A stretch of DNA of 64,000 nt from Peptococcaceae bacterium UBA5752 (GCA_002419055.1 DIFI01000021.1:24102-88101), one strand, 5' to 3'; counted from the first letter of the stretch, positions 1,174 to 31,988 are shown. Notes: a model not told the origin generated them from the sequence alone. Numbers and translations are program-made.

Positions 1174-1425
1174 GTGTCTAACTAAAGCACAGCGGTAATC
1201 TCTTGTATCATTGTTGTTACATAACAAAAATCCTTTTTATAGCTAATAATATATATTGTATCCGGCAAAGAATAATCTATAGTGTAAATAATTTTATAGA
1301 GGCCATTTACAATTATTTACAAGAATGGTATAATTAAACCGTTATATTTATTAATGTATAACGAATTGACGTGTGTCAATTTTCGCCATAACGGCTGATA
1401 AAAAATAGATATTGGGTGGGTGAAA

Positions 1426-2496
1426 ATGCATTTAAAAAACTGTTTGATACTGGCTTGTATTATATTTGGCATAGTATTTCTTCTTGGTTGTGATGCCAAA
1501 ACTGATGAAAATACTATTGCCGACTACTCTAATGAAGAGATAACTGTTTCCGGCCTTGCGGATGAGGATTTTACTGTCACTGTTGCGGACTTGGCCGCAC
1601 TGGACAGCGTTGAGCGCAGCGCTTCCGCCCAGCGCTCAAATGGAGAGGAAGTTTCTATTGACGCGGTCGGCCCCCTGTTGGATACTTTTTTAGCACAGTA
1701 TGGCAAAAGTCAGAGCGATTTTACCAGCATCCGCTTTACAGCTTTCGACAAATATTCCATTACTGTTGACAGTCAAGTGCTGGATAACAGGGAAATTGTG
1801 CTGGCGGTTGCGGATGGAGGCGATGCGCTTTCCAAAGATGACCAGCCGCTGCGGGTGGTGATACCGGGGGAGAGGGCGATGTACTGGGTTCGTCATCTTT
1901 GCCGCATTGATTTTGAAAGCGGCGAGACAACCAGTCAGTGCCGGAAGATGGTCTTTCTTTCCGCGGCAGTACAGACGCTCAAAAGCAGTGATTATGATTA
2001 TAACGGCGTAACGGATCAGGTGATTGCTGTCGGCGATTTGCTTGATGCTTATGCGGACAGTGAAAATGCCGATACGGTATCTCTGATTGCCGCCGACGGT
2101 CTGACAAAATCGGAAACCGCCGCCAACTTCCGTTCCGGGTTGCTTAAATACACGGGTGCGGATGCTCCGCGCTTTGTTGCCGATGAGCTTCCGGAAGGGA
2201 TGCAAATTTATGACTTGTTGATGATCGGTTATGGGCAGATGGAATTTCTAACGTTGGATAAACTGATTTCACTCTATGGAAACGAGGATGGTATTTTATT
2301 CTTTGATGTTACCCAAAAGGCTAACGGAGTAAGCGCGGAAAGTTATGTCTTCACTTGTCAGGATGGCAGCAGCGTTACGCTTCCCGTAGACGAGCTGCAG
2401 GATGCGACACTTTCTTTGGACGAAGAAGGCCGAGTTATTTTGCAACCTGCTAGCGGTGAGAAGGTAATTGACCTGCTGCAAATTGAGGCGAAATAA
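1426..2496 (+). CDS. Secreted lipoprotein with two tandem sulfite-oxidase/YedY-like (Oxidored_molyb-like) domains
   Basis: Lipobox FLLGC after a hydrophobic N-terminus. ATG 1426 is preferred over GTG 1420 given the upstream GGGTGGG. The motif QPLRVVIPGERAMYWVRHLCRIDF resembles the YedY/SO C-terminal strand. No Cys at the Moco-ligand position. Confidence 0.65.
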   Translation: MHLKNCLILACIIFGIVFLLGCDAKTDENTIADYSNEEITVSGLADEDFTVTVADLAALDSVERSASAQRSNGEEVSIDAVGPLLDTFLAQYGKSQSDFTSIRFTAFDKYSITVDSQVLDNREIVLAVADGGDALSKDDQPLRVVIPGERAMYWVRHLCRIDFESGETTSQCRKMVFLSAAVQTLKSSDYDYNGVTDQVIAVGDLLDAYADSENADTVSLIAADGLTKSETAANFRSGLLKYTGADAPRFVADELPEGMQIYDLLMIGYGQMEFLTLDKLISLYGNEDGILFFDVTQKANGVSAESYVFTCQDGSSVTLPVDELQDATLSLDEEGRVILQPASGEKVIDLLQIEAK

Positions 2497-3275
2497 TGAT
2501 AAAAAAACGCTGGCCATGGCTGTTAATAATAATACTGGCAGCGGTAGCAGCATATATCTCAGGCAGGCTGATGCAGCCAGCCTATACCCCTGTAATATAC
2601 ATTGTTGGCGATGTTGAGAAATGTTTAGAAACAAATGATATAGACAAGCTGGGGGATTTGCAACAGGTTGATTTTGATAGCGATACATATCAAGCGGTAA
2701 CACTTGCGGATGTTGTTGCCGCAGCGCAGCCCGCTGCACAAACCAAGAGGGTTCTGATGATTGCGGACGATGGGTTTTCGGTGGAGATAGCAGGGGATAC
2801 GCTGGATGATTGCTGGCTGACCTTTACCCCTAAAGATGGTTGGCGCGTTTTGGCTCCGCTGCATCCGCTCTCCGCCAACGGCACGCATATTTGGCGCATT
2901 GTGGTAGTTGCTGACAGTAGCAGCCAAACTGCTCTTACGGTAACTGCCGGCGGCGAAACGAGCAGCTTTACAATTGGACAATTGTATGCAGGAACAACAA
3001 TCAGCTTCCCTTATCCGGAAGGAACGGCGGAAAAGGCAACGGATGACGTTGTTTATTCCTCTACTGTCTATACCCGTCGTGATTGCCTGACATTGGCGCA
3101 GCTTGGCTGTGATGAGGCCGCTGAAATACAGATAAACGCGGCAAATGGTCAAAGTCTGACTGTGAACTCGTCCGAAACAGGGCTGTTCCAGCTGAACGGT
3201 AATAGTTTGAGTTATATCAATGCAATACAGCGCAAACAAATGGAAGATGTTGATGAAATTGTGGTACTGAAGTAA
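2496..3275 (+). CDS. N-terminally membrane-anchored protein with an SO/YedY-like half domain
   Basis: TAATG overlap with the upstream gene (translational coupling). N-terminal TM WPWLLIIILAAVAAYI. Motifs VTLADVV...VLMIADDGFSVEIAGD...THIWRIVVV. Confidence 0.55.
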   Translation: MIKKRWPWLLIIILAAVAAYISGRLMQPAYTPVIYIVGDVEKCLETNDIDKLGDLQQVDFDSDTYQAVTLADVVAAAQPAAQTKRVLMIADDGFSVEIAGDTLDDCWLTFTPKDGWRVLAPLHPLSANGTHIWRIVVVADSSSQTALTVTAGGETSSFTIGQLYAGTTISFPYPEGTAEKATDDVVYSSTVYTRRDCLTLAQLGCDEAAEIQINAANGQSLTVNSSETGLFQLNGNSLSYINAIQRKQMEDVDEIVVLK

Positions 3276-3351
3276 TTTTTTTACCGTTGTATATTCTTTT
3301 GTGAGAATAGTTTTGTACGCAAATAATAAAAAATAGTTTTTAGGAAAGATA

Positions 3352-5274
3352 ATGAACAAATTTAATTTCAAATCACAATGTTTATATAGTTCTAACATAA
3401 AATTGGTGACAATTGCCTTGCTAATGATTGCATTAATTGTTTTTGCTTGGCCTGCACAGCCAGCTTCGGCGGCTAATGCTTTGACCGTGCAGGTGAGCAA
3501 AGGCGGTGAAATCGCAAAAGTTGCAAGCTACAGCAAAGAAGATCTGGAAGCGCTGGGTACGGTGCAGCAGTATTATTCTTCGGTGGATGCTAACAGTGCA
3601 CCGGTAGTAGTTGTGGCGCGCGGCGTGGCCATATCTACCCTGATGGCCGATTTGGGTATTAATATCGCGGATGCTGAAACTTTGCGCTTTGCTTCCTCTG
3701 ACGGCGGCAACCGCAGCTATAGCGTAGCGACTTATGTTTCCGCAGCACGTTATTATTATCCGCAGATTGTAGACGGTTACGATGCGGATGCCGATGAAAT
3801 TCCGGCATTCGTAGCCGGTGCTGATCAAGAAAAAGTTAAAGTCAGCGCTATGTTGGCATTAGCCAGCTATGAAGGACGCTATCAATCGAAGCCAGACGCT
3901 TCACAAATGAGCTCTGCCAATGGTTTACGATTTTGCTATGGGCAAAGCGCTATTAACGAAGCGGTTTCCCTTAATTACAACAAATATATAAACAGCCTGA
4001 CTATTGTCCTCAAAAGCAGCAGTAGCTATCAACTGCCCGAAGAAGATGAGAGCAGTGGAGAAAGCAGCGGTGATACTGCCATACCCAGTACCGGTATTCC
4101 GGAAGTTCTGGATAGGGAAGGATTGATGGCGGATACGCTGACCATCACTGTGGGCTATTACGGCGGTACATATTATACAAAAAAGGTTTTTACCTTGGAA
4201 GAACTGCAGGCCATGGCCAATGTGCAGCAGGTATATAGCTGTATCGATAATATGCCGGCGGTATGTCTGGATGCAGCGGTTGGCGTGAGGCTAACGGATA
4301 TATTGGCGGCGGCTGGTATAGATGTCAATTCAGTGCAGAGCTTCCACTTTTATTGTGCGGATGTCTCCCGAACTTGGTATACGTCCATGAGTAAAACATA
4401 TTTGCTCGATACGCCGCGTTATTATTATCCTAATTTGCCGAAAAGCTGGGATTATGATGAAGCTAAGGCTATTTCCGGCGCGACTGCCGGTGCGCGGGAG
4501 GTTGATGTTATCTTAGCACTGCAGGATAAATGGCGGCGTTTTGCTATGGAAACGGATTATAGTGATCTTACCGATACAACCCGCTTTCGCTTGCTGTTCG
4601 GCCAAAGTGACGTCTATACCGTGGAGGGCTCCCGTTCCGCCAAATGGGTACATACCATAGCCGTCACGCTGGGCGGATCACCACCCAAGGGTGTTACTCT
4701 TAACGCCTCTGCTTTGGATCTGACAGTTGGCAGTGATTATCAGCTTTCCGCTACAGTGGAAAAGACAGATCAAACCACCGATACCCGCGTCATCTGGAGC
4801 AGCAGTGACGAAGATATTGTTTCCGTAGATAAATCAGGCAATATTACGGTTAAGGGCGACGGTCAAGCTACCGTTACCGCTACTACTGTTTTCGGTGGAT
4901 TGACTGCCACTGTGGTGATAAACGGCAGCACCGATGCGGCTGACAGTACCGCCACCGGCAGCAGTACCAATACCAATGGCAGTAACACAACCGGCGGCAG
5001 TAATTCTACGGAGGGCAAGGAGGATACCGATTCTGCTGATGCGGCGCAGACCGAAACCGGCGGCGTATATCGTATTTCGGTAGGTGGCTCGGATACAGCG
5101 AATAGTGAGGCAGGTGTTCAAAGGTGGCGGGACAGTGAAATGGCTGCCAACGCGGTAGCGCTTCCGGATATAGAAACGGATAGTCCTTTGATGAGGATTA
5201 CATTAATTGCAATACTGGCTTTATTTATAGTCGGTATTCTTGGCAGAATAATTATTTATCGTTTGGAGGTATGA
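3352..5274 (+). CDS. Secreted 640-aa surface protein: two RYYYP-type domains, Big_2 domain, S/T/G/N-rich linker, C-terminal TM anchor
   Basis: Signal peptide ending ASA/AN. Motifs ARYYYPQ and PRYYYPNL. Big_2-like VTLNASALDLTVGSDYQLSA...VTATTVFGGLTATVVI. C-terminal LIAILALFIVGILGRIIIYRLEV. Confidence 0.75.
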   Translation: MNKFNFKSQCLYSSNIKLVTIALLMIALIVFAWPAQPASAANALTVQVSKGGEIAKVASYSKEDLEALGTVQQYYSSVDANSAPVVVVARGVAISTLMADLGINIADAETLRFASSDGGNRSYSVATYVSAARYYYPQIVDGYDADADEIPAFVAGADQEKVKVSAMLALASYEGRYQSKPDASQMSSANGLRFCYGQSAINEAVSLNYNKYINSLTIVLKSSSSYQLPEEDESSGESSGDTAIPSTGIPEVLDREGLMADTLTITVGYYGGTYYTKKVFTLEELQAMANVQQVYSCIDNMPAVCLDAAVGVRLTDILAAAGIDVNSVQSFHFYCADVSRTWYTSMSKTYLLDTPRYYYPNLPKSWDYDEAKAISGATAGAREVDVILALQDKWRRFAMETDYSDLTDTTRFRLLFGQSDVYTVEGSRSAKWVHTIAVTLGGSPPKGVTLNASALDLTVGSDYQLSATVEKTDQTTDTRVIWSSSDEDIVSVDKSGNITVKGDGQATVTATTVFGGLTATVVINGSTDAADSTATGSSTNTNGSNTTGGSNSTEGKEDTDSADAAQTETGGVYRISVGGSDTANSEAGVQRWRDSEMAANAVALPDIETDSPLMRITLIAILALFIVGILGRIIIYRLEV

Positions 5275-5275
5275 C

Positions 5276-5908
5276 ATGTTTGCGGAAAATTTAAGTGTTG
5301 CCCTACGGGCAGTGGCAGAAAACCTGCGTAGTCCGGTGATGTGTATTCTGCTGCTGTTGATCATAATAGCGGTAGTAATGTTTGGCTCCATGATAGCGGA
5401 GATTTTTACCGAAAGAATGCGGCTCAAGGCAAAGATGCCCCGATTGGTGGATGATATTAAAGACGAAGATAAAGAGTTGGCGGATACTATCGAAAAAAGC
5501 GGATTGCTCAAGCGTCAGAAGAATGCCTTATTGGAATTGATAATTCATCCGGAATTGACACCTGTGATGCGTGAAGCTTTAGCCAGACGTCTGATTTTTG
5601 AGGAGCAGAACCATTATGACCGGATCGTTAAAATCACTGATTTGATTTCGCGGCTTGGCCCGATGCTGGGTCTGCTTGGTACGCTGATCCCCTTGGGGCC
5701 GGGGCTGATTGCCTTAGGACAGGGAGATACATATTCTTTATCTCAATCCCTGCTTACTGCCTTTGATACAACCATTGCAGGTTTGGCCTCAGCCGTACTG
5801 GCTTTTGTGATATCCGCTATCCGTAGGAGCTGGTACGAAAACTATATGACGATGCTCGAAGCTTTGATGGAATGTATATTGGATAGGGAGGCCGGCCATG
5901 CAAAATAG
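5276..5908 (+). CDS. MotA/TolQ/ExbB-family proton-channel protein (3 TM)
   Basis: GGAGGT RBS. The start lies 1 nt after the upstream stop. Family signature LGPMLGLLGTLIPLGPGLIALGQGD...LLTAFDTTIAGLASAV. Topology is TM1, cytoplasmic loop, TM2-TM3. Confidence 0.75.
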   Translation: MFAENLSVALRAVAENLRSPVMCILLLLIIIAVVMFGSMIAEIFTERMRLKAKMPRLVDDIKDEDKELADTIEKSGLLKRQKNALLELIIHPELTPVMREALARRLIFEEQNHYDRIVKITDLISRLGPMLGLLGTLIPLGPGLIALGQGDTYSLSQSLLTAFDTTIAGLASAVLAFVISAIRRSWYENYMTMLEALMECILDREAGHAK

Positions 5909-6221
5909 TTTAAGAGGCGGCGGCTTGCGAAGCGGCCGTACGCAAAGTGATTTTAATCCTATGGATGGTTTGGCTAATTTGGCCGACTGTATGCTGGTTT
6001 TGGCCTGTGGCCTGCTGCTTTCGTTGATTGTCAGCTGGAATCTGGATATCGCGGTGGACGAAACCGTGGCAAGTCCCAACGAAAGCGCTGTTAGCGAGGT
6101 AGATGGCGTGGAGAATAGCGATCTAAATTCCATAGATGAGAACAGCGGTTATAAGGAAATGGGAAAGGTTTATAAAGACCCAAAGACCGGGCAGCTTTAT
6201 ATGGTAATAGATGATAAATGA
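5898..6221 (+). CDS. ExbD/TolR-like single-pass protein with short acidic C-terminal domain
   Basis: Overlaps the exbB-like stop (ATGCAAAAT at 5898, with GGGAGG upstream). FNPMDGLANLADCMLVLACGLLLSLIV resembles the ExbD N-terminus/TM. The periplasmic part is only ~55 aa and D/E-rich. Confidence 0.55.
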   Translation: MQNSLRGGGLRSGRTQSDFNPMDGLANLADCMLVLACGLLLSLIVSWNLDIAVDETVASPNESAVSEVDGVENSDLNSIDENSGYKEMGKVYKDPKTGQLYMVIDDK

Positions 6222-6240
6222 TAAAGGGGGAAGGGATATT

Positions 6241-8229
6241 ATGAAAAAGATCAAGGGTATATTACTGGTATTATTGACATTGTCGCTGGTGCTTTTTGTA
6301 GCTCTGCCGGCTATGGCAATTGACCCGGTGGAGCCCAGCGACACTCTGGAAGTCTGCCTTAAAACGGCGGACGGTACAGTAACGCTGCATACTTACACAT
6401 TGGCCGAGATGGAGGCCCTAGCAGACGGGGAGGATATCTGCTATTCCGGTATTGATGCCATGCCATGCACGGTAAAAACCGTGGCCAGCGGCGTTTATAT
6501 CGAGGATCTTTTGGATGATGTAGCGCAGTATACCACTATGGACGTATGGGATTTTTCTAAGCTGCGTTTCACATCTACCGATGGCGCGACAGGCATCTTT
6601 ACCGAAGACGATCTCTTCTGCGACCGCTATTATTTTGCTGCACTTCACGAAGAAAGCGGCGGGCTAAATGAAGATGGTTTAGTAGATTACGATTATGGAG
6701 AGGGCGAATTGGTTCAGCCAATGCTTTCCATCAGTGCCGAGCAGGGTCGCCGTCCGATGCCGTCAGAATTCCGCGATGATTATAACCCGGAGCGCTATAC
6801 CATTCTTTTTGGTATAACTGAGGATGAAGTAGAAAACGCTACCCAGCGCGTTTCTCAGTACAAGCGCGGCGTATATAAAATGGTTATTGATCTGGGCAAT
6901 GTATCCGCGCCTCAAGTGGCTGTAACGGGCATTGCTCTTGATAGAACCAGCGACAAGGTTTATACCGGCAAATCGATCCAGCTTACAGCTATCATTAGTC
7001 CGAGTGATGCGACTAATACGGGGGTTACCTGGAGCAGCAGTGATCAGTCGGTAGCGAAGGTATCTTCCACAGGGGTTGTCACAGGGGTTGCCACAGGAAC
7101 AGTTACTATCATCGCTACAGCTGCCGGAAATACCGCATTTAGTGCATCCTGTAACGTAACCGTATCCAACCGGAGCGTATCGGTTTCGGGCGTTTCTTTA
7201 AGCCAAAGCAGCCTGTCATTGGGAGTAGGCGGTAAAAAAGAGCTGACCGCCACCGTACTGCCCGGCAATGCCGACGAGCGCGACGTGACTTGGTTAAGCA
7301 GCAATGAAAAAGTTGCAACTGTCGATGACGGTATGATCACTGCCGTTGCCGTGGGTCAGGCTACTATAACCGTCGAGACCTCTGACGGCGGTTACACCGC
7401 TGTATGCACGGTTACCGTCACAAATGAGGCGATTGCCGTCACCGGAGTGACGCTGAACCGTACTGCCGTATCACTAGCCAAAGGCAGCAGCTTCCAGCTT
7501 GTTGCCAATTTCAGTCCGGAGGGCGCTTCCAATATGGCTGTTGTTTGGAGCAGCAGCGCACCGGGCGTTGTTGCAGTGGATACCAATGGCCTACTTACTG
7601 CAAAGAATATCGGAACCTCGACTATTACCGTTCTGACAAGTGAAGGCAGCTTTACCGCGCAATGTCTGGTAAAGGTTGCGGATTCGGTCGAAGCTTTCAG
7701 TGATATATCGGGTAATTGGGCGAAGACGTATATTGAAAGCATGGTGGATGCAGGATTTATTAGCGGCTATACTGACGGCAGCTTCCGTCCTATGGCTAAC
7801 ATTACCCGTGCTGAATTCATAAGCATACTCATCCGCATCCTTCAAAGCGCCAAGGGTGAAACATTGCAAACAGGGCATGTATTTAACGATACGTCAGCAC
7901 ATTGGGCTAAGGACTATATTTCCACCGCGGTAGCACTTTCGATTACTTCCGGCTACGGCAACGGTAATTTTGGCCCCAATGACCCAATCACCCGCGAGCA
8001 GATAGCAGTAATGCTGACCAAGGCTGCGGATTCAAGCGGCAGCACCACCGCCACCAGCTTCACCGATGTAGCTAAGATTTCCTCCTGGGCGGTTTCTTCT
8101 GTTGCTTATGCTGCGGAACAGGGATGGATCAGTGGCTACAGCAATGGCAGCTTTGGTCCGCAAAGACAAGCCACCAGAGCAGAAGTATGTGCGTTACTCT
8201 GGCGTTTTTATCAACAGATCAATGGTTAA
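6241..8229 (+). CDS. SLH-anchored surface protein: RYYYP-type domain, 4x Big_2, 3x SLH
   Basis: ATG 6241 after GGGGGAAGGG. Signal peptide ...ALPAMA. Four repeats of the type VTGIALDRTS...VTWSSSD...ATGTVTI. Three C-terminal SLH motifs (FSDISGNWAKTYIE.., FNDTSAHWAKDYI.., FTDVAKISSWAV..). Confidence 0.85.
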   Translation: MKKIKGILLVLLTLSLVLFVALPAMAIDPVEPSDTLEVCLKTADGTVTLHTYTLAEMEALADGEDICYSGIDAMPCTVKTVASGVYIEDLLDDVAQYTTMDVWDFSKLRFTSTDGATGIFTEDDLFCDRYYFAALHEESGGLNEDGLVDYDYGEGELVQPMLSISAEQGRRPMPSEFRDDYNPERYTILFGITEDEVENATQRVSQYKRGVYKMVIDLGNVSAPQVAVTGIALDRTSDKVYTGKSIQLTAIISPSDATNTGVTWSSSDQSVAKVSSTGVVTGVATGTVTIIATAAGNTAFSASCNVTVSNRSVSVSGVSLSQSSLSLGVGGKKELTATVLPGNADERDVTWLSSNEKVATVDDGMITAVAVGQATITVETSDGGYTAVCTVTVTNEAIAVTGVTLNRTAVSLAKGSSFQLVANFSPEGASNMAVVWSSSAPGVVAVDTNGLLTAKNIGTSTITVLTSEGSFTAQCLVKVADSVEAFSDISGNWAKTYIESMVDAGFISGYTDGSFRPMANITRAEFISILIRILQSAKGETLQTGHVFNDTSAHWAKDYISTAVALSITSGYGNGNFGPNDPITREQIAVMLTKAADSSGSTTATSFTDVAKISSWAVSSVAYAAEQGWISGYSNGSFGPQRQATRAEVCALLWRFYQQING

Positions 8230-8259: not shown

Positions 8260-9687
8260 ATGAAGAAGTTAAAAAAGACGGGCCTGTTTTTCTGCGTCTT
8301 GGTGGCAATTTTGATCCCTACTATGTCCTGGGCGGGAGCAACAAGTAGTCTCGATATTACCGGCCCCTGTTACGAGATGCTTTCACCCACCAACAGCGCT
8401 ACTGAGATGGCAGTTACCTGGTGGGATGCGCTGGAGGTAAACACAGCCTCTGTGCAATACAGCACCAGTTCGAACTTTAGCAGTGGTGTTTTCAGTGTTG
8501 CAGCTACCTTATCCAAAAACGATACCACTAACGGATATAGCGCTTTTGCGGCAACGATGACCAATCTTACCGCTGATACTACTTATTATTACCGCGTTGG
8601 TAATGTCACCGCTTGGAGCGATACCAATAGTTTTACAACCGGTGATGCAGCCTCGGCCAGCAGCCTTTCCATCATGTATCTGGGCGATGCCCAGTATGCA
8701 AGCTATAATGCCGCAGTAGAGGAGTATGCTACCTGGGGTAGTTTGATCAATGGCGCATATACAAAATTTCCCAATCTTGATTTTGCGTTAATGGGCGGTG
8801 ATTTAGTTAGTCTAGGTCAGTCGGCTGTCGATTGGCAGCGTTTCTACAATAATGCTAGTCCGGTATTTTCCAAATTGCCTGTATTAGCAGTGCCCGGCAA
8901 CCATGAAAGCAATGCAACTTCCGGCAAGCCGGAGCTGTTCCTGAAACTGTTCGATTTGCCGACCAACGGCCCCACAGGTTTTGAAGAGGAATTCTATTCC
9001 TATGATTACGGAAACTGTCATATCGTTTGTTTGAGCAGCAGCATATTCCTCGATGAGCAATTAGCAGCCGGCACTATGACCGAAGCTGACTTCGACACGA
9101 TTAAGCAGTGGATTGCCAGTGATTTGGCTGATTCCGATGCAACCTGGAAGATTGTGGTCATGCACCATCCTGCTTATGCGGTAGTCAGCGACGACACTGC
9201 TGTTGATGTATTGGCGAACTGGGCGCCGGTTTTTGTCAATGCACAGGTAGACTTGGTCTTATGTGGTCATCAGCATGTTTATATGCGTACCGAAGCGATT
9301 AAGGGCGTTACCTATGTGATGGGCGTATCCGGCAGCAAGTTTTATGCGCCGGCTACTGTGTCCTATTCTGAGTGTATGATCGGCTATACCAGCAATTATG
9401 AAATCATTAACGCTGATAGCAACAGTTTGACGGTAACGGCTTATGATTCTACTGGTACCAGTTTGGATACAGTGACGATTAAACCAAAAAATAGGACCAT
9501 CACGCCGACTTGGCCTGAGGATATTGTCGGTGACCTCAACGGCGACGGGTCTATTACCTCTGCCGATGTAACACTACTGATTAGCGCGATTTTAACCAAT
9601 GCTGCTTATTCCACTGTCATGGATGTAAATGATGATGGAAAAGTAAACATCTGTGACGCTCATCAGCTTAGCTTAAGCTTACTATAA
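8260..9687 (+). CDS. Purple-acid-phosphatase-like metallophosphoesterase with C-terminal dockerin
   Basis: AAGGAG RBS and a signal peptide. Fn3-like PAP N-domain (TTYYYRVGN). Metallophos motifs GDAQY, GGDLVS, GNHE, MHHPAY, CGHQH. C-terminal DLNGDGSITSADVTLL and DVNDDGKVNICDAHQL dockerin repeats. Confidence 0.85.
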   Translation: MKKLKKTGLFFCVLVAILIPTMSWAGATSSLDITGPCYEMLSPTNSATEMAVTWWDALEVNTASVQYSTSSNFSSGVFSVAATLSKNDTTNGYSAFAATMTNLTADTTYYYRVGNVTAWSDTNSFTTGDAASASSLSIMYLGDAQYASYNAAVEEYATWGSLINGAYTKFPNLDFALMGGDLVSLGQSAVDWQRFYNNASPVFSKLPVLAVPGNHESNATSGKPELFLKLFDLPTNGPTGFEEEFYSYDYGNCHIVCLSSSIFLDEQLAAGTMTEADFDTIKQWIASDLADSDATWKIVVMHHPAYAVVSDDTAVDVLANWAPVFVNAQVDLVLCGHQHVYMRTEAIKGVTYVMGVSGSKFYAPATVSYSECMIGYTSNYEIINADSNSLTVTAYDSTGTSLDTVTIKPKNRTITPTWPEDIVGDLNGDGSITSADVTLLISAILTNAAYSTVMDVNDDGKVNICDAHQLSLSLL

Positions 9688-9704: not shown

Positions 9705-11402
9705 ATGCGAGTGAGTGATAAACTAAAAATCTTCGTTTTACTGTCTGTAATCTTTTGTTTGATATTGCTGCCGACTGTATGCTTGGCCGCCGGCACCAAA
9801 GTGTCGGATGCCGTCAATAATATATTCGTCTATGCTGACGATGCCACCGGCGCTCAGGTTTTACTTAAAGTCATTCCATTATCTACCCTTAAGTCAATGT
9901 CACATGGTAGTGATGGTACAGCCAATACCGACTATTACGGTTCTTTTCTTGACGCCTATAAAACGCCGACTTACTTAGAAGGGCAGGGCGTTACCATACC
10001 TGAGCTGCTTACCTATGTCAAAAAGAACTCTTTGGTGGCAGATGTTGGTTCGCTGACTTATGCCGGATCGGATATACTATATTTTACTTGCTGCGACGGC
10101 GCTTCCGTTAATTTTACCTATGATGCGCTGTATGGTACTGAATTAAACCCGGTGAACCGCTATTATTATCCAGCCTTATATGATTACTGGGACAGTGAAA
10201 ACGTTGAAGTGCCGGATGCTGATGAGGCTACAGTTTTGGCAAGCGGCATTTCGGCACCGGTTTATCTTGCAACCGTATCCAAGGGCGGACGGGTATTTGC
10301 CAGCGCCGGCGGCACAAATATTTCCTCTTATGTTACAGCTAACGATGGCGTGGTCAGCGGTTGCCTGGCCGGTCAACTTACGGATGAAGATGCGCTGCGT
10401 TTAATCTTTCCGCAGACTGCCAGCGATATTCAAAGTAGTACCGATACATTAAGTTTTATCAAAAAATGGGTGTATAAGGTCCGGCTGAAAACAGCTGAGA
10501 CTTCACCGATTGCCTCGCTTGGTACGATCAGCAATCCCACATGTACCTATACCCTGGACGGCACCACACTCACTATCACCATGAGTTGTGAGGATGCAAA
10601 TGCTTCTCTCTATTATTCAACCATCGGTGGTTATACCGCCACGCCGGTAAACCTCTATACCGAGCCGATAACCGTGGAAAATTACGATACCAGCAAGCCA
10701 TTCACCATCAGCGTGATGGCGGTACGGGAAGGTTATGTGAACAGTACTGCTATATCCGCAAGCTCCGCCAATTATACCGATGGCGAGGGCGCGCCCAGTT
10801 TCACCTATGCTTTAACTTCATCCGATGCTACGCCCACGGTTGGCACCGCTTTTGATCTTTCGGTGACCCTTGCTGCCGATAAAGATTATACGCTTTACGG
10901 TGCCGAATACCGCGTTTCGGTACCGGCAGCTTATACAGTCAACAGCGTTACTCTCGGCACCGGCTGGCAATATGGTACAGCCACTTACGCTAATGAAGCG
11001 ACAATTGTCACATTTACCTATCTGAATACTACAGGGACTGCTGAAACCGCAACTACTGCCGTGCCGGTGGGGTCAATTAATTTGATTCCGGTTACGGCAG
11101 GTGATACTTCCGTTACGGTCAGTGAAGCGATTGTAACCAAAAGCGATGCTACCGCTTACACCAATATTACAGCCGCAGATTCAAGTTTCACGGTTGAGAG
11201 CAATATCACGCTCGGCGATGTGGATAGTGACAGTTATATCACTATGGGCGATGCCCTGCAAGTATGTAAGACTGTGGCTAAGGTAGTGACTCTAAACGAT
11301 GATCAGAAAAAAGCGGCTGATGTAGACAAAGACGGCTATATCACCATGAGCGACGCACTACTCATCTGCAAATATGTAGCCAAAGTTATCAGCGAATTTT
11401 AG
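9705..11402 (+). CDS. Secreted adaptor-like protein: RYYYP-type domain, Fn3/CHB_HEX_C-like, cohesin-like domain, C-terminal dockerin
   Basis: RBS GGAAGGGGGA and a signal peptide. NRYYYPALYD. Cohesin-like FDLSVTLAADKDYTLYGAEYRVSVPAAY...VTFTYLNTTGTAE. Dockerin-like DVDSDSYITMGDALQVCK and DVDKDGYITMSDALLICK. Confidence 0.8.
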   Translation: MRVSDKLKIFVLLSVIFCLILLPTVCLAAGTKVSDAVNNIFVYADDATGAQVLLKVIPLSTLKSMSHGSDGTANTDYYGSFLDAYKTPTYLEGQGVTIPELLTYVKKNSLVADVGSLTYAGSDILYFTCCDGASVNFTYDALYGTELNPVNRYYYPALYDYWDSENVEVPDADEATVLASGISAPVYLATVSKGGRVFASAGGTNISSYVTANDGVVSGCLAGQLTDEDALRLIFPQTASDIQSSTDTLSFIKKWVYKVRLKTAETSPIASLGTISNPTCTYTLDGTTLTITMSCEDANASLYYSTIGGYTATPVNLYTEPITVENYDTSKPFTISVMAVREGYVNSTAISASSANYTDGEGAPSFTYALTSSDATPTVGTAFDLSVTLAADKDYTLYGAEYRVSVPAAYTVNSVTLGTGWQYGTATYANEATIVTFTYLNTTGTAETATTAVPVGSINLIPVTAGDTSVTVSEAIVTKSDATAYTNITAADSSFTVESNITLGDVDSDSYITMGDALQVCKTVAKVVTLNDDQKKAADVDKDGYITMSDALLICKYVAKVISEF

Positions 11403-11463: not shown

Positions 11464-14400
11464 GTGTTACAAAAGTTGAAGAAAAAGAACCTGACGGTGT
11501 TAGTAATCTTCATAATGGTTCTAGCCCTTTGCGTTGCTTTACCGATTCTGGCGACAGCGGAAGGCACTGCGACCGTTACAGTGGGCAGTACGACTACAGC
11601 AGCAGCTCCCGGAGATAGTATAACCATCCCCGTTGTCATTACCAGTAACCCCGGTATTACTGCATATGGATTTGCGATTTCGTATGATAGCTCAAATTTG
11701 ACATTGGATAGTATTTCGAAAACGGATAATGATTCGAATACGACCGATCTTTGCACTTCCGGTAGTTTTACCCCCAATACAGCATCTGCAGGCACTGGCT
11801 ATGTTAGCTGGCTGGATGGCGGTGCGGATATTACCGGCACCGGAAATTTGTTCTATTTAACTTTCACCGTCAAGAATACTGCGATGGGTGGCAATTATGC
11901 TGTTTCCTGCACTTTAACCGACGGTAGTGCTGCTAACTGCAAAAACTATGCCGGGTCAAATGTTGGCGTATCCTTCACTGACGGCATTATTGAGGTAGTA
12001 GCACCCGACACAACCGCTCCGACAATGACGAGCGTTGCTCCTGGCGAGGGCTTAGTAGCGCTGGGCGCTAGCGATAACCTCGTGCTTACCGTAACGGCAG
12101 ATGACGACGCGGCGCTTTCCGAGCTGGAGATCGACCACAGCATGGAGGGCACGCTGCCGGAATTCAGCGTCTACGCCGACATTGCGAACCCCTACGGCAC
12201 GGCAGATGATAAAGCTCAGTTTGAATCTGCCGGTGTTTCCGTAACCTACGCTGATGGCGTTTGGACGATTGATTTTGGCAGCACGATAACGAATACTATA
12301 GTGAATAACGGCGGCATCACCTTTTACATGGTGCTCAAGGATACGTCCGGCAACAGCTGGGGCAGCATGAGCCCGACTACTGCCGAGAATACCTATGCCT
12401 ATACCATAGCGCGGGACACAACCGCTCCGACTATGACAAGCGTTGAACCGGCTGAAGGCGCGGTGGAGCTGGACGCCAGCGAGGACTTTGTACTGACCGT
12501 GACGGCGCATGACGATATTGAGCTGTATGAGCTTGAGATCGACCACAGCATGTCAAGCACATTGCCGGAATTCAGCGTCTACGCCAACAGCGAAAACCCC
12601 TATGGCACAGCTGAGGATAAAGCTGAATTTGAAGCCGCCGGTGTTTCCGTGACCTACGGCGGCGGCGTCTGGACGATCGATTTTGGCGATACAGCAACGG
12701 ATGCTTTCGTGGCAAACGGCGGCATAACCTTATACATAGTAGTCAAGGATATGGCCGGCAACAGCTGGGGCAGCATGAGCCCGACTACTGTCGAGAATAC
12801 ATATGCATACACGATTACCCGCAAATACATTGCGGCGGCTAATTTCACTGACGGAGTCTATGCAATTACATCGGGCGGCGAATATAAGCTCGCTACTGAT
12901 GCGGCAGGGACGATTCAGATCAGCACCACCGATCCGGTGACTATTAGCGGCAATGGCACGACCGGCACCGCTAACAGTGGCCTTAGCATTGATAATACCG
13001 TAGCTGGTGCGGACCTGACCATAGAAGACCTCTATATCACCGGCGCAGTTACCGGTTCCGGTATGGTTGAATTTACCGGCAAAGACAATAAACTGTCGCT
13101 TTCCGGTGTCAGCACCCTTCAACGTATCGGAGGATCAGTTTGGGGCAATGCACTGATCCATGTGCCTGCGACTGCTGATCTGACCATTGACGGCGACGGT
13201 ACAGTCTATCTGGCCCAAGATGGCGACGGTGCTGCCATCGGCGGCAATCCTTCCGAGATCAACGGTAATATCACTATTAACGGAGGCGAAATCTTCTGCC
13301 GCAGTAATAAAACAGGCTCCAGCATCGGCGGCGGCCAGAGCGCTAACGGTGGTAATATTACCATCAACGGCGGTGAACTCAATATATTCCACAACGCGCG
13401 CGGCGCCATTTTGGGCGGCGGCGGCTATAGTGGCAGTTTAGTAGGCAACGGCGGTACTGTAACCATGACCGGCGGCAATGTCTCCCTGTTTGTAAATTTC
13501 ACAGGCGCGGCCATTGGCGGCGGCGGCGGGAGCAATTCTGCTCTGGAGCAGGACGGAGGAGACCTTTATATCACCGGCGGCTCGCTCAAAACCTATATCA
13601 ACAGCAATGCACTCAGTTTCTGGGGACTCACAACCGAAGGCGTCACGCCTGTTATCATCACCGCGGATAAATCAACCGGCGTGGGCGGAAATGCAGTCCA
13701 TCTGCTTACTATGGATGTGAGCGGTGTTACGGCCAATGACACCGGCGCCGCTTATGTGGCTTATCTGGATAATGAAACCACCGATCCCATTTATTCCGGT
13801 GGGTTGCACAGCTATGCTTATACCGGTACCAGCACCAACGCTATGACATATTGGCAGAAGTCTACCACGGATAACAACCTCTACCTCTATGTCACCGGTG
13901 AGAATCATACTGTCACCGTTAATGATCAAAAATTCAATGTCACTTGGGATTCCGGCACTTCCGGCTTCAGTGTTGCGGCGGCTCCTAAAATCTGGGATGG
14001 CACTGCGAATACAGGTTGGTATAATACCACTGATACGGAATTCCATCTCACCATGGGTAACCAACTGGCCGGACTTGCGCAGATCGTCAACGGTACGGCA
14101 ACCGGCATCACTCAAGACAGTTTCAGCGGCAAGACCGTCAATATTGATAACGATATCTATCTTAACGACGGTACAACCAGTAATAATTGGACGCCTATCG
14201 GTGATATTACACACCATTTTGACGGTGTGTTTAACGGCGGCGGCTACAATATATACGGTATGAAAATTATTGCAACAAAGGGCTATGCCGGTTTATTCGG
14301 CAACGTATCCGGTACAGTTAAGAACTTTAAACTTTACGGATCTGTTACTATTAATTCGGCGATTGACGGCGATATTGCAAAAGGTAGTAAAACTAATACC

Positions 14401-17400
14401 GATAACGACTTTGTCGGTGCGGCAGTTGGTAAACTCAATGCGGGCGGTACGATCAGTAACGTCATCAACTATGCTCCCATTGAAGCCAAGGAATGCATGA
14501 ACGTCGGCGGTATCGTCGGTTTTGTCGGCACGCCCGTCACGTATGGGACGAAATCAGACGCTTATGCCGAATATAACTCCAACCCCTCCGGCAGTAACAC
14601 CTATGTGCTCAACTGCGGCAATAACGCCACTGTACATGGTTTTTACAAGCTGGGCGGTATCGCCGGTGAAAGCGCGGGTATTGTTATGTACTGCTACAAT
14701 ACCGGCTACATCCTCCCGCACATGCACGGTTCCGGCGGCGGCTGGGGCGGCATTGTCGGACGCAACGGCAACAACAACACAGCGACCGAGGTCGGCACCA
14801 TTGCCTATTGCTGGAACAGCGGTACAGTTACCGACAACGGCATGAACGATGACCACAACGAGACGATCAAGTGGTATGGCGGTATCACTGCCTTTTGCAA
14901 CAGTAAGTCTTCTGTACACAACTGTTACAACATCGGCGCAATTCCTGCCGGACGCAACACTTTTTCGTCCATCATTGGTAACTGCGAAAGCACTATGGTT
15001 TACAACAACTGTTCGCTGATTTCCACCAGCATCAATAGCGACAGCACATATGAGAAAAACTTGGGCATACAGTTTGAGGAATCTGATTTCAAGAGCGCTG
15101 CCAATACGGATACCTCTATATTGACTGTGCTGGGCCCTGTTTTTGTCGCTGATACCGGAAATATTAACAACGGATATCCTGTCCTGCGCTGGCAGGCGGG
15201 CAGCAGCGCCGAACCGACGCTAACCTCTGTTTCGTTATTCTCGGTGCCGACAAAAATCGCTTATTATGAGCTGGAGACCTTTAATCCTGCAGGTATGAAG
15301 CTTAAAGCAACATACAGTGACGGAACTTATGCAATATTATCGGGCGGCTTCACTTATCCCACCGATCCGTTGTCTGACAGCACTAACAGCGTTACCGTTA
15401 GCTATGGCGGTTTTGATATTACTCAAGCCATCACGGTCTACAATCTCGATTCTATCGCTGTTACCACACAGCCTACCAAAACGGTTTACAATGCCACCGA
15501 TTTATTTAACAGATCCGGTATGGTAGTTACCGTTTACTACAGCGATAATACTTCGAAGGTGATTTATTCATATACTTATCCTACAACTCCTTTAACTGAT
15601 GACATGACCAGCGTTACTATCGGCTATGGCGACAAGACCACTACCCAGCCGATCACGGTCAATGCTTTAGGCTTGACCGTGATCGCGGTAACAACTGTGC
15701 CGACCAAGACTTTCTATCTCCCCGACGAATCATTTGATAATACCGGTATGGTAGTTAATGCAACATATAACAGTGCAGTGGTACAGCCTTTGGCTGCGGA
15801 AGACTACGTCGTCACTCCCGCCTCACTGACCATTGGTACAACTGCGGTCACCATCAGCTTTACCTATCTTGGCGTAACTCAGACCGCGTCTACTCCGGTG
15901 ACAGTGATATCTGCAACACCTGCCTTGGTTGACGGGTATTATCAGATAGTGAGCGCAGATGATCTTCGCTGGTTCGCCGATTATGTGAGCGTCCAGGGCA
16001 ATACAACTGCCTGCGCCAAGTTGGTCAATGATATTACCCTCACCTCTGATTGGACGCAGCCGATCGGTAACAGTACCAATAAGTTTGCCGGTACTTTTGA
16101 CGGTAACGGCAAGACGATCAGCGGCCTAGATAATGCTGCGGTGACCACACAGAATTTTGGTCTTATTGGCTATGGCTTAGGGGCTACTGTCAAAGACCTT
16201 ACAGTCGGCGGCGAAATCAGCACGACCGCCTCTAATACCGGTTTGGTTGCCGGTTGGGCCGACGGTTGCACTTTTACCAATATCACAGCCAACGGTTCGC
16301 TGACCAGAGCCAGCGGTACCCTAAACAATACTGCCGGTATCACAGGTTACGCCTGCAATGCCAGCGTATTAACTAACTGCGTGAACAATGCCGCTATTAC
16401 CTCCGGCGGTCAGTATACAGGCGGTATCGCCGGCAGCGCAGACGGCGCGACCAGCTTCTCCGGCTGTATCAATAACGGTGTGATCAATACTACCCATCGG
16501 TATATAGGTGGCATCGTCGGTTCGTTCGGCGGTACGGGCAACATCACATCCTGTATCAATAAAGGTGCAGTTACTGCCACCTATAACGTTGGTGGTATCG
16601 CCGGTAGATATAACTCAACCGGCAGCATGGAGAATTGCTATAACAGCGGTGCCATCGTCGCTACCTTATCATCAACATCTACTGCTTACGCTGCAGGCGG
16701 CGTGATCGGTTATTTCGGCGGCGCCGGTACTATAGACACCTGCTACAACAGCGGTGATGTCACCGGCGCTATCGGTAATGTCGGCGGTGTGGTCGGCTGT
16801 ATGTATGCGGCCAATAGCATACTGACCAACAGTTATAATACCGGCGACGTCTGTTACACCGGCAATGCCACTACTCCTTGCGTGGGCGGCGTTGTTGGCG
16901 CGACCAATGATGTTAGCTGCACGATCCAGAACTGTTACAACCGCGGCGCGGTAACCTTTGCTACAACCAAACCTTTGATCGGCTCCGTCGTCGGTACACC
17001 CAAGATCGGATATACCGCCATCAGCAATAACTATTATCTCAACACCACTTCTGCTGATGCGACATCTACAGCCAAAACTGCCGCTGAACTGAAGAATCTT
17101 GCTGCCACTTTGGGCGCAAGCTACAAGGCAGGCGGCATTTCACCTATCTTCACCTGGCAGCCGGATGAAGTATTTACCTCCGCAGCACCGGTAGTGAACG
17201 TAGATACTGTTACCGCCGATGTTCCGGATACGATCGTCATTGGCGCTAATGCCAATGTGGAAATCAACGCTTCGGCGGTGACTGTGGAAGATATCAACAC
17301 ATCAAATGTTTCAATTCCCGCAGCTTTGGTTGAGAATCTGGACAATGCCCAATCAGTCACCATTGTGACCAACATGGGTAATATCACATTTGACAACGCT

Positions 17401-19356
17401 GCTCTTGCTGATATTGTGGATAACGCTACCACGTCCCTGACCTTAGGCCTCGATCGAACCAGCGATGCGGACGGTGTTACGGTATATGAGCTGACGCTCA
17501 AAGACAGCGGCGGCAATAATGTCTTTACCGAAGGCTCCGCTACAGTCACATTGCCTTATACCCTGGCCGAAGCAAAAAGCCCTGATAGCGTCAAGGTTTT
17601 CTATGTGGCGAGCAACGGTACCAAGACAGAAGTGACCAATTGTACCTATGCCAACGGTTACGTCACTTTCACAGTTGAGCACTTCTCCACATACAGCATC
17701 GAGGCAGACAGCACCACAATCTCCGCAATTACCGCTGCCACTAATGCCAACGCCGGTGAAACCTTTACCGTCGATGTCAAGGTCAGCGGCGATGCAGCTC
17801 AGCAGTTTGCTTCCATGTCCGCCAATCTCAATTATGATAAGACCAAAGTAGCATTTGTAAGCTTTGCTGCGGGGGCCGGTACAACTGAAGCCAGCGCCTA
17901 TGATAATACAACTACCGCCAAGGTAAATATCCTCGAAAGCGGTGCGGATAAGACCATCGGCGCCGACGGCTTTGTGATCGGCACAATCACTTTCCGTGCC
18001 TTGACTGCCATCAGTACCGGCAATAGTGTTGCAGCTTTCTCTATCAGTGACGGTATGGTTGGTGATTCCGGTACACCGACTCCTGCGGTAAGCGCTTTGA
18101 GCGGTGCCAATATTTCCGTCAATTTGCATAATCTGGCGGTTATCTTCCAACAAGGCACGGGCAACACGCTGGCCGCTTCTACCGCATATGCCAAGTACAA
18201 TGCGGCGGGTCTCTTCGCCAGCAATGCCTATACCGATACTTTCACTATTCCTACTCCGGCAGCCTCTGATGGCTACCGCCTGGCGGATATCCTCTGGAAT
18301 AACGGTACCAACAATTACACTTCCGAACAGGTTGCGGCATTGGCTATAACCGCCAATGCGACCATGACTGCGCAATCAGTCAAAACCTACGCTGTAAGTT
18401 TCTATAATAGCGACGCCGCCCAGATAGGCAGCACCCAGAATATAGATACCGGCCTGACTGCCACTGCTCCGGCTGATCCTACTGCCCCGGCGGGCACTGC
18501 TTTTGTCGGTTGGTTTATAGCAGCCTCCAGCGACGCCACCTATGACGGCATTGCCACTCTCTACAGTAAAGCCCAGATTGACTTAGCTGCGGTGACTGCC
18601 GATACCATTTACAAAGCCTATTATTCAGATAATGAGTATGCGATCACCGTTCCTGTCGATGTGACCGTCGTCAGCGGCGTTACCGACAGTAAAGCCAAGC
18701 ACAACACTGACGTAGTCTTCACTGTCAGCACCACCACTGTGGATCAAGGTTATACCATCACTGTTTCCTATAAGGTAGGTACGGCTGATGCAGTAATCAT
18801 CACGAAGGATGCAGAGAACAAGTACACCATCCCCGGCTCTGCTATAACTGATGCGACAGTGATCACAGTCCAGAAAACGATCAACGGCACAATCAGCTAT
18901 ATCAACTATGACAATTACAAAGGCGCACCGGCCAATTATAAAGTGGCTCTGCTGACACTTAGCGACAGCGCTCCTGCGGATAGCAAATACCAGTATGACG
19001 GACAGGATATGTTTTTGGCTCAACCGGTCAATACTACTGCCGCATATGGTACCGGCGCCTACGTATTCTTCGTCGCCTCTGATGAGGATGCGGTGACTAC
19101 GTTATCCAAGATTGCGATTGTCAGCGGCACACAGCTGACTGTCGACTATGACGGAAACGTCAACGGTCTGAGTGAGGTAGAAATCAATGACGCGCAGTTG
19201 GTCTATGATTTGTATAATAATAACACCAATTATTCGTCCGACTTCAATCTCGCCACGATGCTGATGCGCTTTGAAGCCGATGTCAACGGCGACGGCACAA
19301 TCGGCGTCAACGACATCAGAATGATCTACAGCACTATCCGCGGTATCACTGAGTAA
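11464..19356 (+). CDS. Giant 2630-aa secreted multidomain protein: cohesin-like, 2x137-aa tandem repeats, Gly-rich beta-helix, 2 GLUG modules, Ig-like repeats, second cohesin-like, dockerin
   Basis: GTG start 9 nt after AAGGAG. Signal peptide. N-terminal cohesin-like GDSITIPVVITSNPGITAYGFAISYDSSNLTLDSI...NLFYLTFTVKNTA. Repeated GG[IV][AV]G...C[YI]N.GA[IV] GLUG periodicity. C-terminal DYDGNVNGLSEVEINDAQL / DVNGDGTIGVNDIRMI dockerin. A single uninterrupted ORF. Confidence 0.85.
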   Translation: MLQKLKKKNLTVLVIFIMVLALCVALPILATAEGTATVTVGSTTTAAAPGDSITIPVVITSNPGITAYGFAISYDSSNLTLDSISKTDNDSNTTDLCTSGSFTPNTASAGTGYVSWLDGGADITGTGNLFYLTFTVKNTAMGGNYAVSCTLTDGSAANCKNYAGSNVGVSFTDGIIEVVAPDTTAPTMTSVAPGEGLVALGASDNLVLTVTADDDAALSELEIDHSMEGTLPEFSVYADIANPYGTADDKAQFESAGVSVTYADGVWTIDFGSTITNTIVNNGGITFYMVLKDTSGNSWGSMSPTTAENTYAYTIARDTTAPTMTSVEPAEGAVELDASEDFVLTVTAHDDIELYELEIDHSMSSTLPEFSVYANSENPYGTAEDKAEFEAAGVSVTYGGGVWTIDFGDTATDAFVANGGITLYIVVKDMAGNSWGSMSPTTVENTYAYTITRKYIAAANFTDGVYAITSGGEYKLATDAAGTIQISTTDPVTISGNGTTGTANSGLSIDNTVAGADLTIEDLYITGAVTGSGMVEFTGKDNKLSLSGVSTLQRIGGSVWGNALIHVPATADLTIDGDGTVYLAQDGDGAAIGGNPSEINGNITINGGEIFCRSNKTGSSIGGGQSANGGNITINGGELNIFHNARGAILGGGGYSGSLVGNGGTVTMTGGNVSLFVNFTGAAIGGGGGSNSALEQDGGDLYITGGSLKTYINSNALSFWGLTTEGVTPVIITADKSTGVGGNAVHLLTMDVSGVTANDTGAAYVAYLDNETTDPIYSGGLHSYAYTGTSTNAMTYWQKSTTDNNLYLYVTGENHTVTVNDQKFNVTWDSGTSGFSVAAAPKIWDGTANTGWYNTTDTEFHLTMGNQLAGLAQIVNGTATGITQDSFSGKTVNIDNDIYLNDGTTSNNWTPIGDITHHFDGVFNGGGYNIYGMKIIATKGYAGLFGNVSGTVKNFKLYGSVTINSAIDGDIAKGSKTNTDNDFVGAAVGKLNAGGTISNVINYAPIEAKECMNVGGIVGFVGTPVTYGTKSDAYAEYNSNPSGSNTYVLNCGNNATVHGFYKLGGIAGESAGIVMYCYNTGYILPHMHGSGGGWGGIVGRNGNNNTATEVGTIAYCWNSGTVTDNGMNDDHNETIKWYGGITAFCNSKSSVHNCYNIGAIPAGRNTFSSIIGNCESTMVYNNCSLISTSINSDSTYEKNLGIQFEESDFKSAANTDTSILTVLGPVFVADTGNINNGYPVLRWQAGSSAEPTLTSVSLFSVPTKIAYYELETFNPAGMKLKATYSDGTYAILSGGFTYPTDPLSDSTNSVTVSYGGFDITQAITVYNLDSIAVTTQPTKTVYNATDLFNRSGMVVTVYYSDNTSKVIYSYTYPTTPLTDDMTSVTIGYGDKTTTQPITVNALGLTVIAVTTVPTKTFYLPDESFDNTGMVVNATYNSAVVQPLAAEDYVVTPASLTIGTTAVTISFTYLGVTQTASTPVTVISATPALVDGYYQIVSADDLRWFADYVSVQGNTTACAKLVNDITLTSDWTQPIGNSTNKFAGTFDGNGKTISGLDNAAVTTQNFGLIGYGLGATVKDLTVGGEISTTASNTGLVAGWADGCTFTNITANGSLTRASGTLNNTAGITGYACNASVLTNCVNNAAITSGGQYTGGIAGSADGATSFSGCINNGVINTTHRYIGGIVGSFGGTGNITSCINKGAVTATYNVGGIAGRYNSTGSMENCYNSGAIVATLSSTSTAYAAGGVIGYFGGAGTIDTCYNSGDVTGAIGNVGGVVGCMYAANSILTNSYNTGDVCYTGNATTPCVGGVVGATNDVSCTIQNCYNRGAVTFATTKPLIGSVVGTPKIGYTAISNNYYLNTTSADATSTAKTAAELKNLAATLGASYKAGGISPIFTWQPDEVFTSAAPVVNVDTVTADVPDTIVIGANANVEINASAVTVEDINTSNVSIPAALVENLDNAQSVTIVTNMGNITFDNAALADIVDNATTSLTLGLDRTSDADGVTVYELTLKDSGGNNVFTEGSATVTLPYTLAEAKSPDSVKVFYVASNGTKTEVTNCTYANGYVTFTVEHFSTYSIEADSTTISAITAATNANAGETFTVDVKVSGDAAQQFASMSANLNYDKTKVAFVSFAAGAGTTEASAYDNTTTAKVNILESGADKTIGADGFVIGTITFRALTAISTGNSVAAFSISDGMVGDSGTPTPAVSALSGANISVNLHNLAVIFQQGTGNTLAASTAYAKYNAAGLFASNAYTDTFTIPTPAASDGYRLADILWNNGTNNYTSEQVAALAITANATMTAQSVKTYAVSFYNSDAAQIGSTQNIDTGLTATAPADPTAPAGTAFVGWFIAASSDATYDGIATLYSKAQIDLAAVTADTIYKAYYSDNEYAITVPVDVTVVSGVTDSKAKHNTDVVFTVSTTTVDQGYTITVSYKVGTADAVIITKDAENKYTIPGSAITDATVITVQKTINGTISYINYDNYKGAPANYKVALLTLSDSAPADSKYQYDGQDMFLAQPVNTTAAYGTGAYVFFVASDEDAVTTLSKIAIVSGTQLTVDYDGNVNGLSEVEINDAQLVYDLYNNNTNYSSDFNLATMLMRFEADVNGDGTIGVNDIRMIYSTIRGITE
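12004..12825 (+). repeat. Two tandem ~411-nt (137-aa) near-identical coding repeats inside the giant gene
   Basis: PDTTAPTMTSVAPGEG...NTYAYTIA and RDTTAPTMTSVEPAEG...NTYAYTIT. High amino-acid identity; the nt-level similarity is visible by eye. Confidence 0.7.
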
Positions 19357-31941: not shown

Positions 31942-31988
31942 CATTGCAGTAAATAATTATAGAGCCAAAAGATGTGGTGGTAGATATC

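Follow-up and report, generated by a model that had tools for sequence, protein, structure and literature searches.

A 64,000-nucleotide (nt) stretch of DNA from Peptococcaceae bacterium UBA5752 (GCA_002419055.1 DIFI01000021.1:24102-88101), hereafter the window, contains at 9705..11402 an open reading frame (ORF), here called the target, which encodes a secreted protein carrying both a cohesin and a dockerin; the target, its modules and the operon genes around it all lie on the + strand. The ORF is complete (565 amino acids (aa) plus a stop codon), has full-length orthologs at 43-63% identity, and begins at an ATG preceded, 7-8 nt upstream, by the Shine-Dalgarno-like GGAAGGGGG. It starts 17 nt after a phosphatase gene and ends 61 nt before an ORF encoding a 2630-aa protein. 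Its parts are, in order, a signal peptide, a SUOX-fold head, an Ig-like spacer, a cohesin (C1) and a dockerin (D2); the cohesins of the locus are numbered C1-C4 and its dockerin-like modules D1-D3. A sequence-only reading of this DNA had described the protein as an adaptor scaffoldin, and the strings it quoted (NRYYYP at aa 151-156, DVDSDSYITMGDAL and DVDKDGYITMSDAL) are all found in the translation. A Sec-type signal peptide, read from the sequence, occupies aa 1-29 (9705..9791), with predicted cleavage between CLAA and GT; a hydrophobic helix (aa 5-21) lies within it in the structure model of the target, and inspection by eye found no twin-arginine (RR) motif in it (MRVSDKLKIFVLL...). The target has 18 clear homologs, including proteins from Candidatus (Ca.) Formimonas warabiya and a Dehalobacter metagenome-assembled genome (MAG); a single-protein scan of genome contigs returned no relatives, and the alignment was too variable for such a scan.

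D2 is a type-I-like dockerin composed of two near-identical repeats (aa 503-562; 11211..11390). Residues 503-558 score 41.8 bits with Pfam Dockerin_1 (PF00404; cutoff 22.9, E-value 1.3e-10), covering profile positions 1-56 of 57, and phmmer aligns the module with the dockerin of Clostridium thermocellum Xyn10B (XynY) at 5e-9. Each repeat contains a 12-residue Ca-binding loop (D505-V-D-S-D-S-Y-I-T-M-G-D516 at 11217-11252 and D539-V-D-K-D-G-Y-I-T-M-S-D550 at 11319-11354) with Asp at positions 1, 3, 5 and 12, and in the model each loop is followed by a helix (aa 514-524 and 548-558), giving the two EF-hand-like segments of the dockerin fold. The dockerin with Ca loops that had been proposed at about 11212..11385 is borne out by the Pfam score, the XynY match and the two canonical loops. 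An NCBIfam CelK match to the same region lies far below its cutoff and was set aside. In known dockerins, near-identical repeats accompany a dual binding mode.

C1 (aa ~365-499; 10797..11201) has the nine-stranded flattened beta-sandwich (jelly-roll) fold of cohesins. A profile of 12 orthologous C1 domains (A2) found no cohesin in the PDB, only a chance Fab match, and a word-indexed search with this profile recovered a single fragment. The link to cohesins emerged only once 1.84 billion representatives had been searched exhaustively with HMMER, which found 51 relatives and so widened the family: 13 of 32 excised family domains individually match Pfam Cohesin (PF00963; best 1.8e-11), and a profile of all 32 (A4) matches 28 PDB chains, each of them a cohesin (best Acetivibrio cellulolyticus ScaB, 3l8q, 2.1e-6). 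Within the window its closest relative is C4, the N-terminal module of ORF19385 (132 residues aligned, 27% identity, E-value 2e-7); profile A2 scores 40 bits on C4, and C4 in its own right is recognized by Pfam Cohesin (26.8 bits; cutoff 24.1). By these indirect routes only, with four independent lines in agreement, C1 is confirmed as a divergent cohesin, the assignment first suggested for about 10797..11199.

We use the name ‘class A’ for the divergent subfamily that includes C1 and C4; the two other cohesins of the locus, C2 and C3, are Pfam-typical and are unmatched by a class-A hidden Markov model (HMM). The most conserved strands of C1 are b6 (0.73) and b3 (0.72), followed by b1, b8 and b5, and mean conservation is 0.68 in the 8-3-6-5 sheet versus 0.60 in the other. 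In solved cohesin-dockerin complexes (e.g. 1OHZ) it is the face made of strands 8-3-6-5 that contacts the dockerin, and the conservation pattern gives a weak hint that this canonical face may be under constraint in C1. Class-A domains were also seen together with Shr-like_HID domains, in P0027, P0032, P0033, P0039 and the metagenomic protein P0041 (1224 aa), whose single chain combines, within aa 425-1082, Shr-like_HID with class-A cohesin (602-745), dockerin (747-802), Pfam-typical cohesin (866-996) and SLH modules. Other surface systems thus contain the subfamily as well, frequently with a dockerin immediately after it.

The N-terminal head (aa ~38-262; 9816..10490), which accounts for 40% of the protein, was recognized by fold search as having the fold of the SUOX molybdenum cofactor (Moco) domain, so that the ‘RYYYP-type’ domain noted earlier (RYYYP itself at nt 10158-10172) can be given a structural identity. 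Pfam has no match for it, including Oxidored_molyb (PF00174), and a profile of its paralogous copies (A3) found nothing in the PDB by sequence; one of 15 aligned head copies reaches Oxidored_molyb, below cutoff (E-value 1.2e-4). The domain is common to other proteins of the operon: ORF3352 contains two homologous copies and ORF6211 a third, and one of these three has a weak Oxidored_molyb match. Extracytoplasmic Moco enzymes are exported by the Tat (twin-arginine translocation) pathway. SUOX enzymes carry a conserved Mo-coordinating cysteine, which PruR lacks (PMC11194511). In the A3 alignment no invariant or near-invariant column is a cysteine; C220 is common to the orthologs of the target and falls in a low-confidence, ortholog-specific insertion of the model. 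Given a signal peptide of Sec rather than Tat type, the head is probably a PruR-like binder of a small-molecule ligand rather than a Moco-dependent catalyst.

SUOX-like domains recur across 1420..5274 and 6211..8229 of the window, forming a surface-displayed family; ORF1420 gives weak SorA/SoxC-type matches, and ORF2496, which has no match, is related by eye only. Outside the main operon, adjoining rimP, an SLH protein at 23914..25296 (three SLH repeats plus Fn3_assoc/CHB_HEX_C_1) has an N-terminus that weakly matches (26 bits) the SUOX-like HMM built here. Between the head and C1 of the target lies the Ig-like beta-sandwich spacer (aa ~276-354; 10530..10766), all-beta in the model with a predicted local distance difference test score (pLDDT) above 90 and weakly similar to CHB_HEX_C_1/Fn3_assoc (CHB_HEX_C_1: 20.2 bits, where the cutoff is 22; E-value 5.7e-4); PF13290 is carried by orthologs of the target.

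The neighbouring genes encode further cohesins and dockerin-like modules. Immediately upstream, 8260..9687 encodes a purple acid phosphatase/metallophosphoesterase (Pfam Pur_ac_phosph_N, Metallophos, and Dockerin_1 at 41 bits) with a C-terminal dockerin, D1 (~9529-9672). Downstream lies the 2630-aa surface protein, here called the giant (11464..19356), in which Pfam Cohesin matches two stretches (E-value 9e-17), also recognized by a local class-B cohesin HMM: the N-terminal C2 (~11554-12015) and the internal C3 (~17704-18138). The giant ends in D3 (~19120-19353), a divergent dockerin-like C-terminus in which the first segment is atypical and longer (DYDGNVNGLSEVEIND) and the one loop is canonical (DVNGDGTIGVND), a motif kept in the giants of two related loci (L003 and L004). 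Downstream of the giant, 19385..20722 encodes an anchor composed of the class-A cohesin C4 (~19457-19915) and three SLH repeats (113.8 bits). A consensus scan of 1-20000 for promoters and terminators found no intergenic terminator between 8260 and 19385; its counts did not exceed those in shuffled sequence, and it provides no positive evidence for a single operon. The best promoter-like site before the operon (1306-1334, 11/12 matches) lies just downstream of a 235-aa ORF at 104..811 (TTG start), whose N-terminus carries a CxxC...CxxC zinc-ribbon-like motif, with several hydrophobic segments after it.

The content of the locus bears directly on whether the target is a classical cellulosomal adaptor scaffoldin, that is, a non-catalytic linker that amplifies carbohydrate-active enzymes (CAZymes) on a cellulosome. 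The presence of a cohesin and a dockerin in one polypeptide, next to SLH-anchored cohesin proteins, is what such a role would predict. Pfam scans, however, detected no glycoside hydrolase or carbohydrate-binding module (CBM) in the locus, where the only dockerin-bearing enzyme is the purple acid phosphatase; the target has an N-terminal SUOX-fold domain and a single cohesin; and its named relatives, from Ca. Formimonas warabiya (a dichloromethane fermenter) and the Dehalobacter MAG, belong to organisms that are not cellulolytic. Domain content thus contradicts a cellulosomal role, which we regard as very improbable, and the system appears, from its locus content, to be unrelated to carbohydrate degradation. 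What stands of the adaptor scaffoldin proposed by the sequence-only reading is the pairing of cohesin and dockerin on one chain and, as the related loci suggest, an adaptor-like place in a chain of proteins; a cellulosomal scaffoldin it is not, given its own SUOX head, its one cohesin and the lack of CAZymes in the locus.

Ten related loci were compared, with synteny read from the contigs encoding target relatives and with local HMMs (class-A cohesin, class-B cohesin, Pfam-type dockerin, D3 tail and SUOX-like) scanned over all of their ORFs. The NusA encoded in the window shares 73% identity with its Ca. Formimonas warabiya counterpart; further named relatives are MAGs of Peptococcaceae, Desulfitobacteriaceae and Dehalobacterium. 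The typical gene order is one or more SUOX-like proteins, MotA/ExbB, DUF2149, a protein with SUOX-like, Big_2 and SLH domains, the dockerin-bearing phosphatase, the target, the giant and, optionally, the anchor. This order is kept in Formimonas (L001) and in the Dehalobacter MAG (L007, whose contig breaks off inside the target-like gene), and is sometimes rearranged in the metagenomic contigs (L003-L006, L008 and L009). In all ten loci a dockerin-bearing phosphatase is encoded immediately upstream of the class-A cohesin protein, although only its C-terminal, dockerin-bearing part lies on the L006 contig.

D2 and C2 are both present in the window, L001, L003, L004 and L005, and both absent from L006, L008 and L009, where a target-like head and C1 are fused to a giant-like protein with Glug, class-B cohesin, Flg_new and SLH domains; the partial Dehalobacter fusion (L007) also has no D2. 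C1 is retained in the fusions that have lost D2. Giants with the conserved D3 tail (window, L003 and L004) are followed by a class-A cohesin-SLH anchor as a separate gene, and the Formimonas giant, which has its own SLH repeats in place of the D3 tail, is accompanied by neither tail nor anchor. In L003 and L005, both of which have D1, the local HMMs detect no C3. Genes for an energy-coupling factor (ECF)-type transporter (ABC_cobalt, two ABC_tran and CbiQ) flank the locus in L001 (134..2903), L007 (25..2791) and L003 (21281..21698); in the window, no such gene is seen in the 1.4 kb that precede the operon.

These patterns suggest that the target, secreted and modular, belongs to a non-cellulosomal assembly of cohesins and dockerins displayed by an uncultured anaerobe of the Bacillota, serving both as a functional subunit and as a one-cohesin adaptor in a chain that would follow gene order (phosphatase, target, giant, anchor, wall); we lean towards this explanation as a whole, at slightly better than an even chance. 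Domain identities, folds and conservation of the locus are shown directly by the analysis, whereas every pairing is inferred from the ten loci, and the ligand of the head is likewise a proposal. C1 would receive D1 of the phosphatase encoded immediately upstream, D2 would plug into C2, the N-terminal cohesin of the adjacent giant, and the giant would be held on the wall by binding of its D3 tail to C4 of the anchor. Because D2 and C2 are lost together where target-like and giant-like proteins are fused, the comparison points to a D2-C2 contact, in a Rosetta-stone pattern in which gene fusion would replace a non-covalent link. Likewise, a D3-C4 contact is pointed to because tail-bearing giants come with a C4 anchor, and Formimonas has neither. 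A D1-C1 pairing is suggested by the adjacency of the two genes in all ten loci and by retention: since C3 is undetectable in L003 and L005, C1 is the only cohesin that always accompanies D1, and its persistence in fusions without D2 argues against C1 being a mere support for the dockerin, and against its binding only D2.

Several observations nevertheless weigh against this chain. The phyletic argument draws on ten related loci, several of them on short contigs. C1 gives no match to Pfam Cohesin (aa 358-499 at E≤10, the whole target at E≤0.1) and shares just 27% identity with the nearest cohesin that Pfam detects, and its linker to D2 is just 3-4 residues long, a tight tandem that recurs in the unrelated relatives P0033, P0041 and P0044 and could mean a structural rather than a receptor role. 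The tandem and the missing Pfam match would both be expected if the target were dockerin-borne cargo at the end of the network, with C1 receiving no dockerin and acting as a rigid, X-module-like support or as a spacer, as would phmmer alignments to chains combining an X-module with a dockerin (XDoc; 4u3s_B and 4wi0_B), which run upstream of the dockerin into aa 431-500. C1 persists, however, in fusions from which D2 is gone, and we consider the cargo role unlikely, if worth keeping in mind. The corresponding XDoc reading of aa 431-500 itself, suggested by 4u3s_B, 4wi0_B and Ruminococcus bromii Amy16 alignments, was demoted to a minority rival, the fold and profile matches of this region being to cohesins and not to X-modules.

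The remaining difficulties concern which module binds which. D3 has no Pfam match and only marginal similarity to PDB dockerins (E-value 0.046 to 2ccl_B), and is not a confirmed dockerin; the proposed chain leaves one cohesin of the window without a partner; and C1, being more like C4 than C2 or C3, might bind D3-type tails instead. The wiring could then differ, with C1 binding a D3-type tail, or the D2 of another copy, and the phosphatase docking on C2 or C3, so that target and giant would polymerize in branched, cyclic or head-to-tail form. Such arrangements would accord with the membership of C1 and C4 in one divergent subfamily (the 40-bit match) while C2 and C3 are Pfam-typical, with the count of four cohesins to three dockerin-like modules, and with the near-identity of the D2 repeats. 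Formimonas, on the other hand, keeps C1 in the absence of D3, the fusion proteins keep it in the absence of D2, and 27% identity between C1 and C4 leaves enough room for different specificities; we judge a different wiring quite unlikely, and retain the chain that follows gene order as the preferred explanation.

The rest of the conserved operon (3352..8229) was annotated from Pfam, the SUOX-like HMM and synteny in L001 and L003-L009. It encodes a membrane-anchored protein with two SUOX-like domains (3352-5274), a 210-aa member of the MotA/TolQ/ExbB family (5276-5908), a 107-aa DUF2149 protein (5898-6221) whose gene overlaps that of MotA/ExbB by 11 nt, and a protein with a SUOX-like domain, three Big_2 domains and SLH repeats (6211-8229). 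An NCBIfam ‘diheme GEGP’ match for ORF3352 was far below cutoff and was set aside. The MotA/ExbB-DUF2149 pair is kept in related loci wherever that part of the operon lies on the contig, and the host is presumably a monoderm member of the Bacillota. The same two families are represented by hmuU (MotA/ExbB family) and hmuV (DUF2149) in the haem-uptake operon of Porphyromonas gingivalis (PMC11681262); DUF2149 receives only passing mentions in the literature, hmuV being one example. Beyond ~21 kb, the window, scanned to ~37 kb, contains mostly housekeeping genes (rimP-nusA-infB, truB/ribF and pnp), among them a single 617-aa ORF at 31974..33827 (GTG start) with TruB_N/TruB_C_2 followed by FAD_syn and Flavokinase, an apparent truB-ribF fusion or else a missed stop or frameshift between normally adjacent genes.

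To our knowledge, nearly everything understood about how cohesins and dockerins assemble comes from cellulosomes. In the present case, non-cellulolytic anaerobes related to Formimonas and Dehalobacter appear to use the same plug-and-socket principle for a wall-anchored chain of four tiers, which would carry several sulfite-oxidase-fold domains and a phosphatase next to an ExbB/ExbD-like pair. The locus is both conserved and compact, a complete genome exists for Ca. Formimonas warabiya strain DCMF, and from this locus one could define a new non-cellulosomal architecture as well as what is bound by a cohesin subfamily that currently escapes Pfam. As to function, the operon might encode a hitherto undescribed cell-surface capture machine of monoderm anaerobes, in which several SUOX-fold (PruR-like) binding domains on wall-, membrane- and cohesin-dockerin-tethered proteins would work with the docked phosphatase, powered by MotA/ExbB-DUF2149 as an ExbB/ExbD-like motor. 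The machine would take up a phosphorylated cofactor or nutrient, of pterin type or another, and hand it to a transporter; ECF-type genes adjoin the locus in three relatives. This proposal is speculative and rather improbable as it stands; were it true, the target would be the adaptor joining phosphatase and binding head on the giant scaffold.

Among known systems, the SUOX proteins SoxC/SorA, YedY/MsrP and PruR (PMC11194511) resemble the head in sequence only at noise level and with no Pfam match. Like PruR, the head is a SUOX-like fold in a secreted protein; as a difference from the SUOX enzymes, no cysteine is conserved across its paralogous copies, although the orthologs share C220. In PruR a PW motif replaces the Mo-coordinating cysteine, and Tyr, Trp and Asn residues sandwich the pterin (PMC11194511); the head of the target is much larger, has an ortholog-specific insertion and is fused to cohesin-dockerin modules, and the genes around it encode a phosphatase, MotA/ExbB, DUF2149 and surface proteins but no DcpA-type partner. 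XDoc dyads (a type II/III X-module plus dockerin, as in 4u3s_B) share with the target a beta-sandwich directly N-terminal to the dockerin with almost no linker, whereas C1 has the nine-strand cohesin fold and cohesin homology rather than the Ig fold of an X-module, and persists where the dockerin is lost.

The adaptor scaffoldins of cellulosomes, such as A. cellulolyticus ScaB (PMC4217186), likewise combine cohesin and dockerin in one secreted polypeptide. The target would also share with ScaB a position between a dockerin-bearing enzyme and a cohesin protein leading to an SLH anchor, and D2 has the same two canonical Ca-binding loops. Unlike ScaB, the target has one cohesin rather than an array, a SUOX-fold head of about 235 aa that makes it more than purely structural, no associated CAZymes or CBMs, a C1 too divergent for Pfam, and almost no C1-D2 linker. 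Searches of the literature returned no description of this system: they yielded no mention of dockerins in Formimonas, and no relevant paper that brings together cohesin, dockerin and Dehalobacter.

Proteins bearing a cohesin together with a dockerin are already known, as are cohesin-dockerin pairs outside cellulosomes, from Clostridium perfringens toxin complexes and archaeal cohesins, and reportedly from a 2009 survey by Peer et al. The principle of assembly is familiar; what is uncharacterized is the C1 subfamily and its setting of SUOX-fold, phosphatase and ExbB-like proteins. Compared with the C. perfringens NanJ/NagJ cohesins (2vo8, 2jh2, 2w1n) and the Archaeoglobus fulgidus cohesin (2xdh), the partners here are of a different kind, comprising SUOX-fold proteins, a purple acid phosphatase, the MotA/ExbB-DUF2149 pair and a giant Glug/Flg_new protein, and the modules appear to form a multi-tier, wall-anchored chain within one operon.
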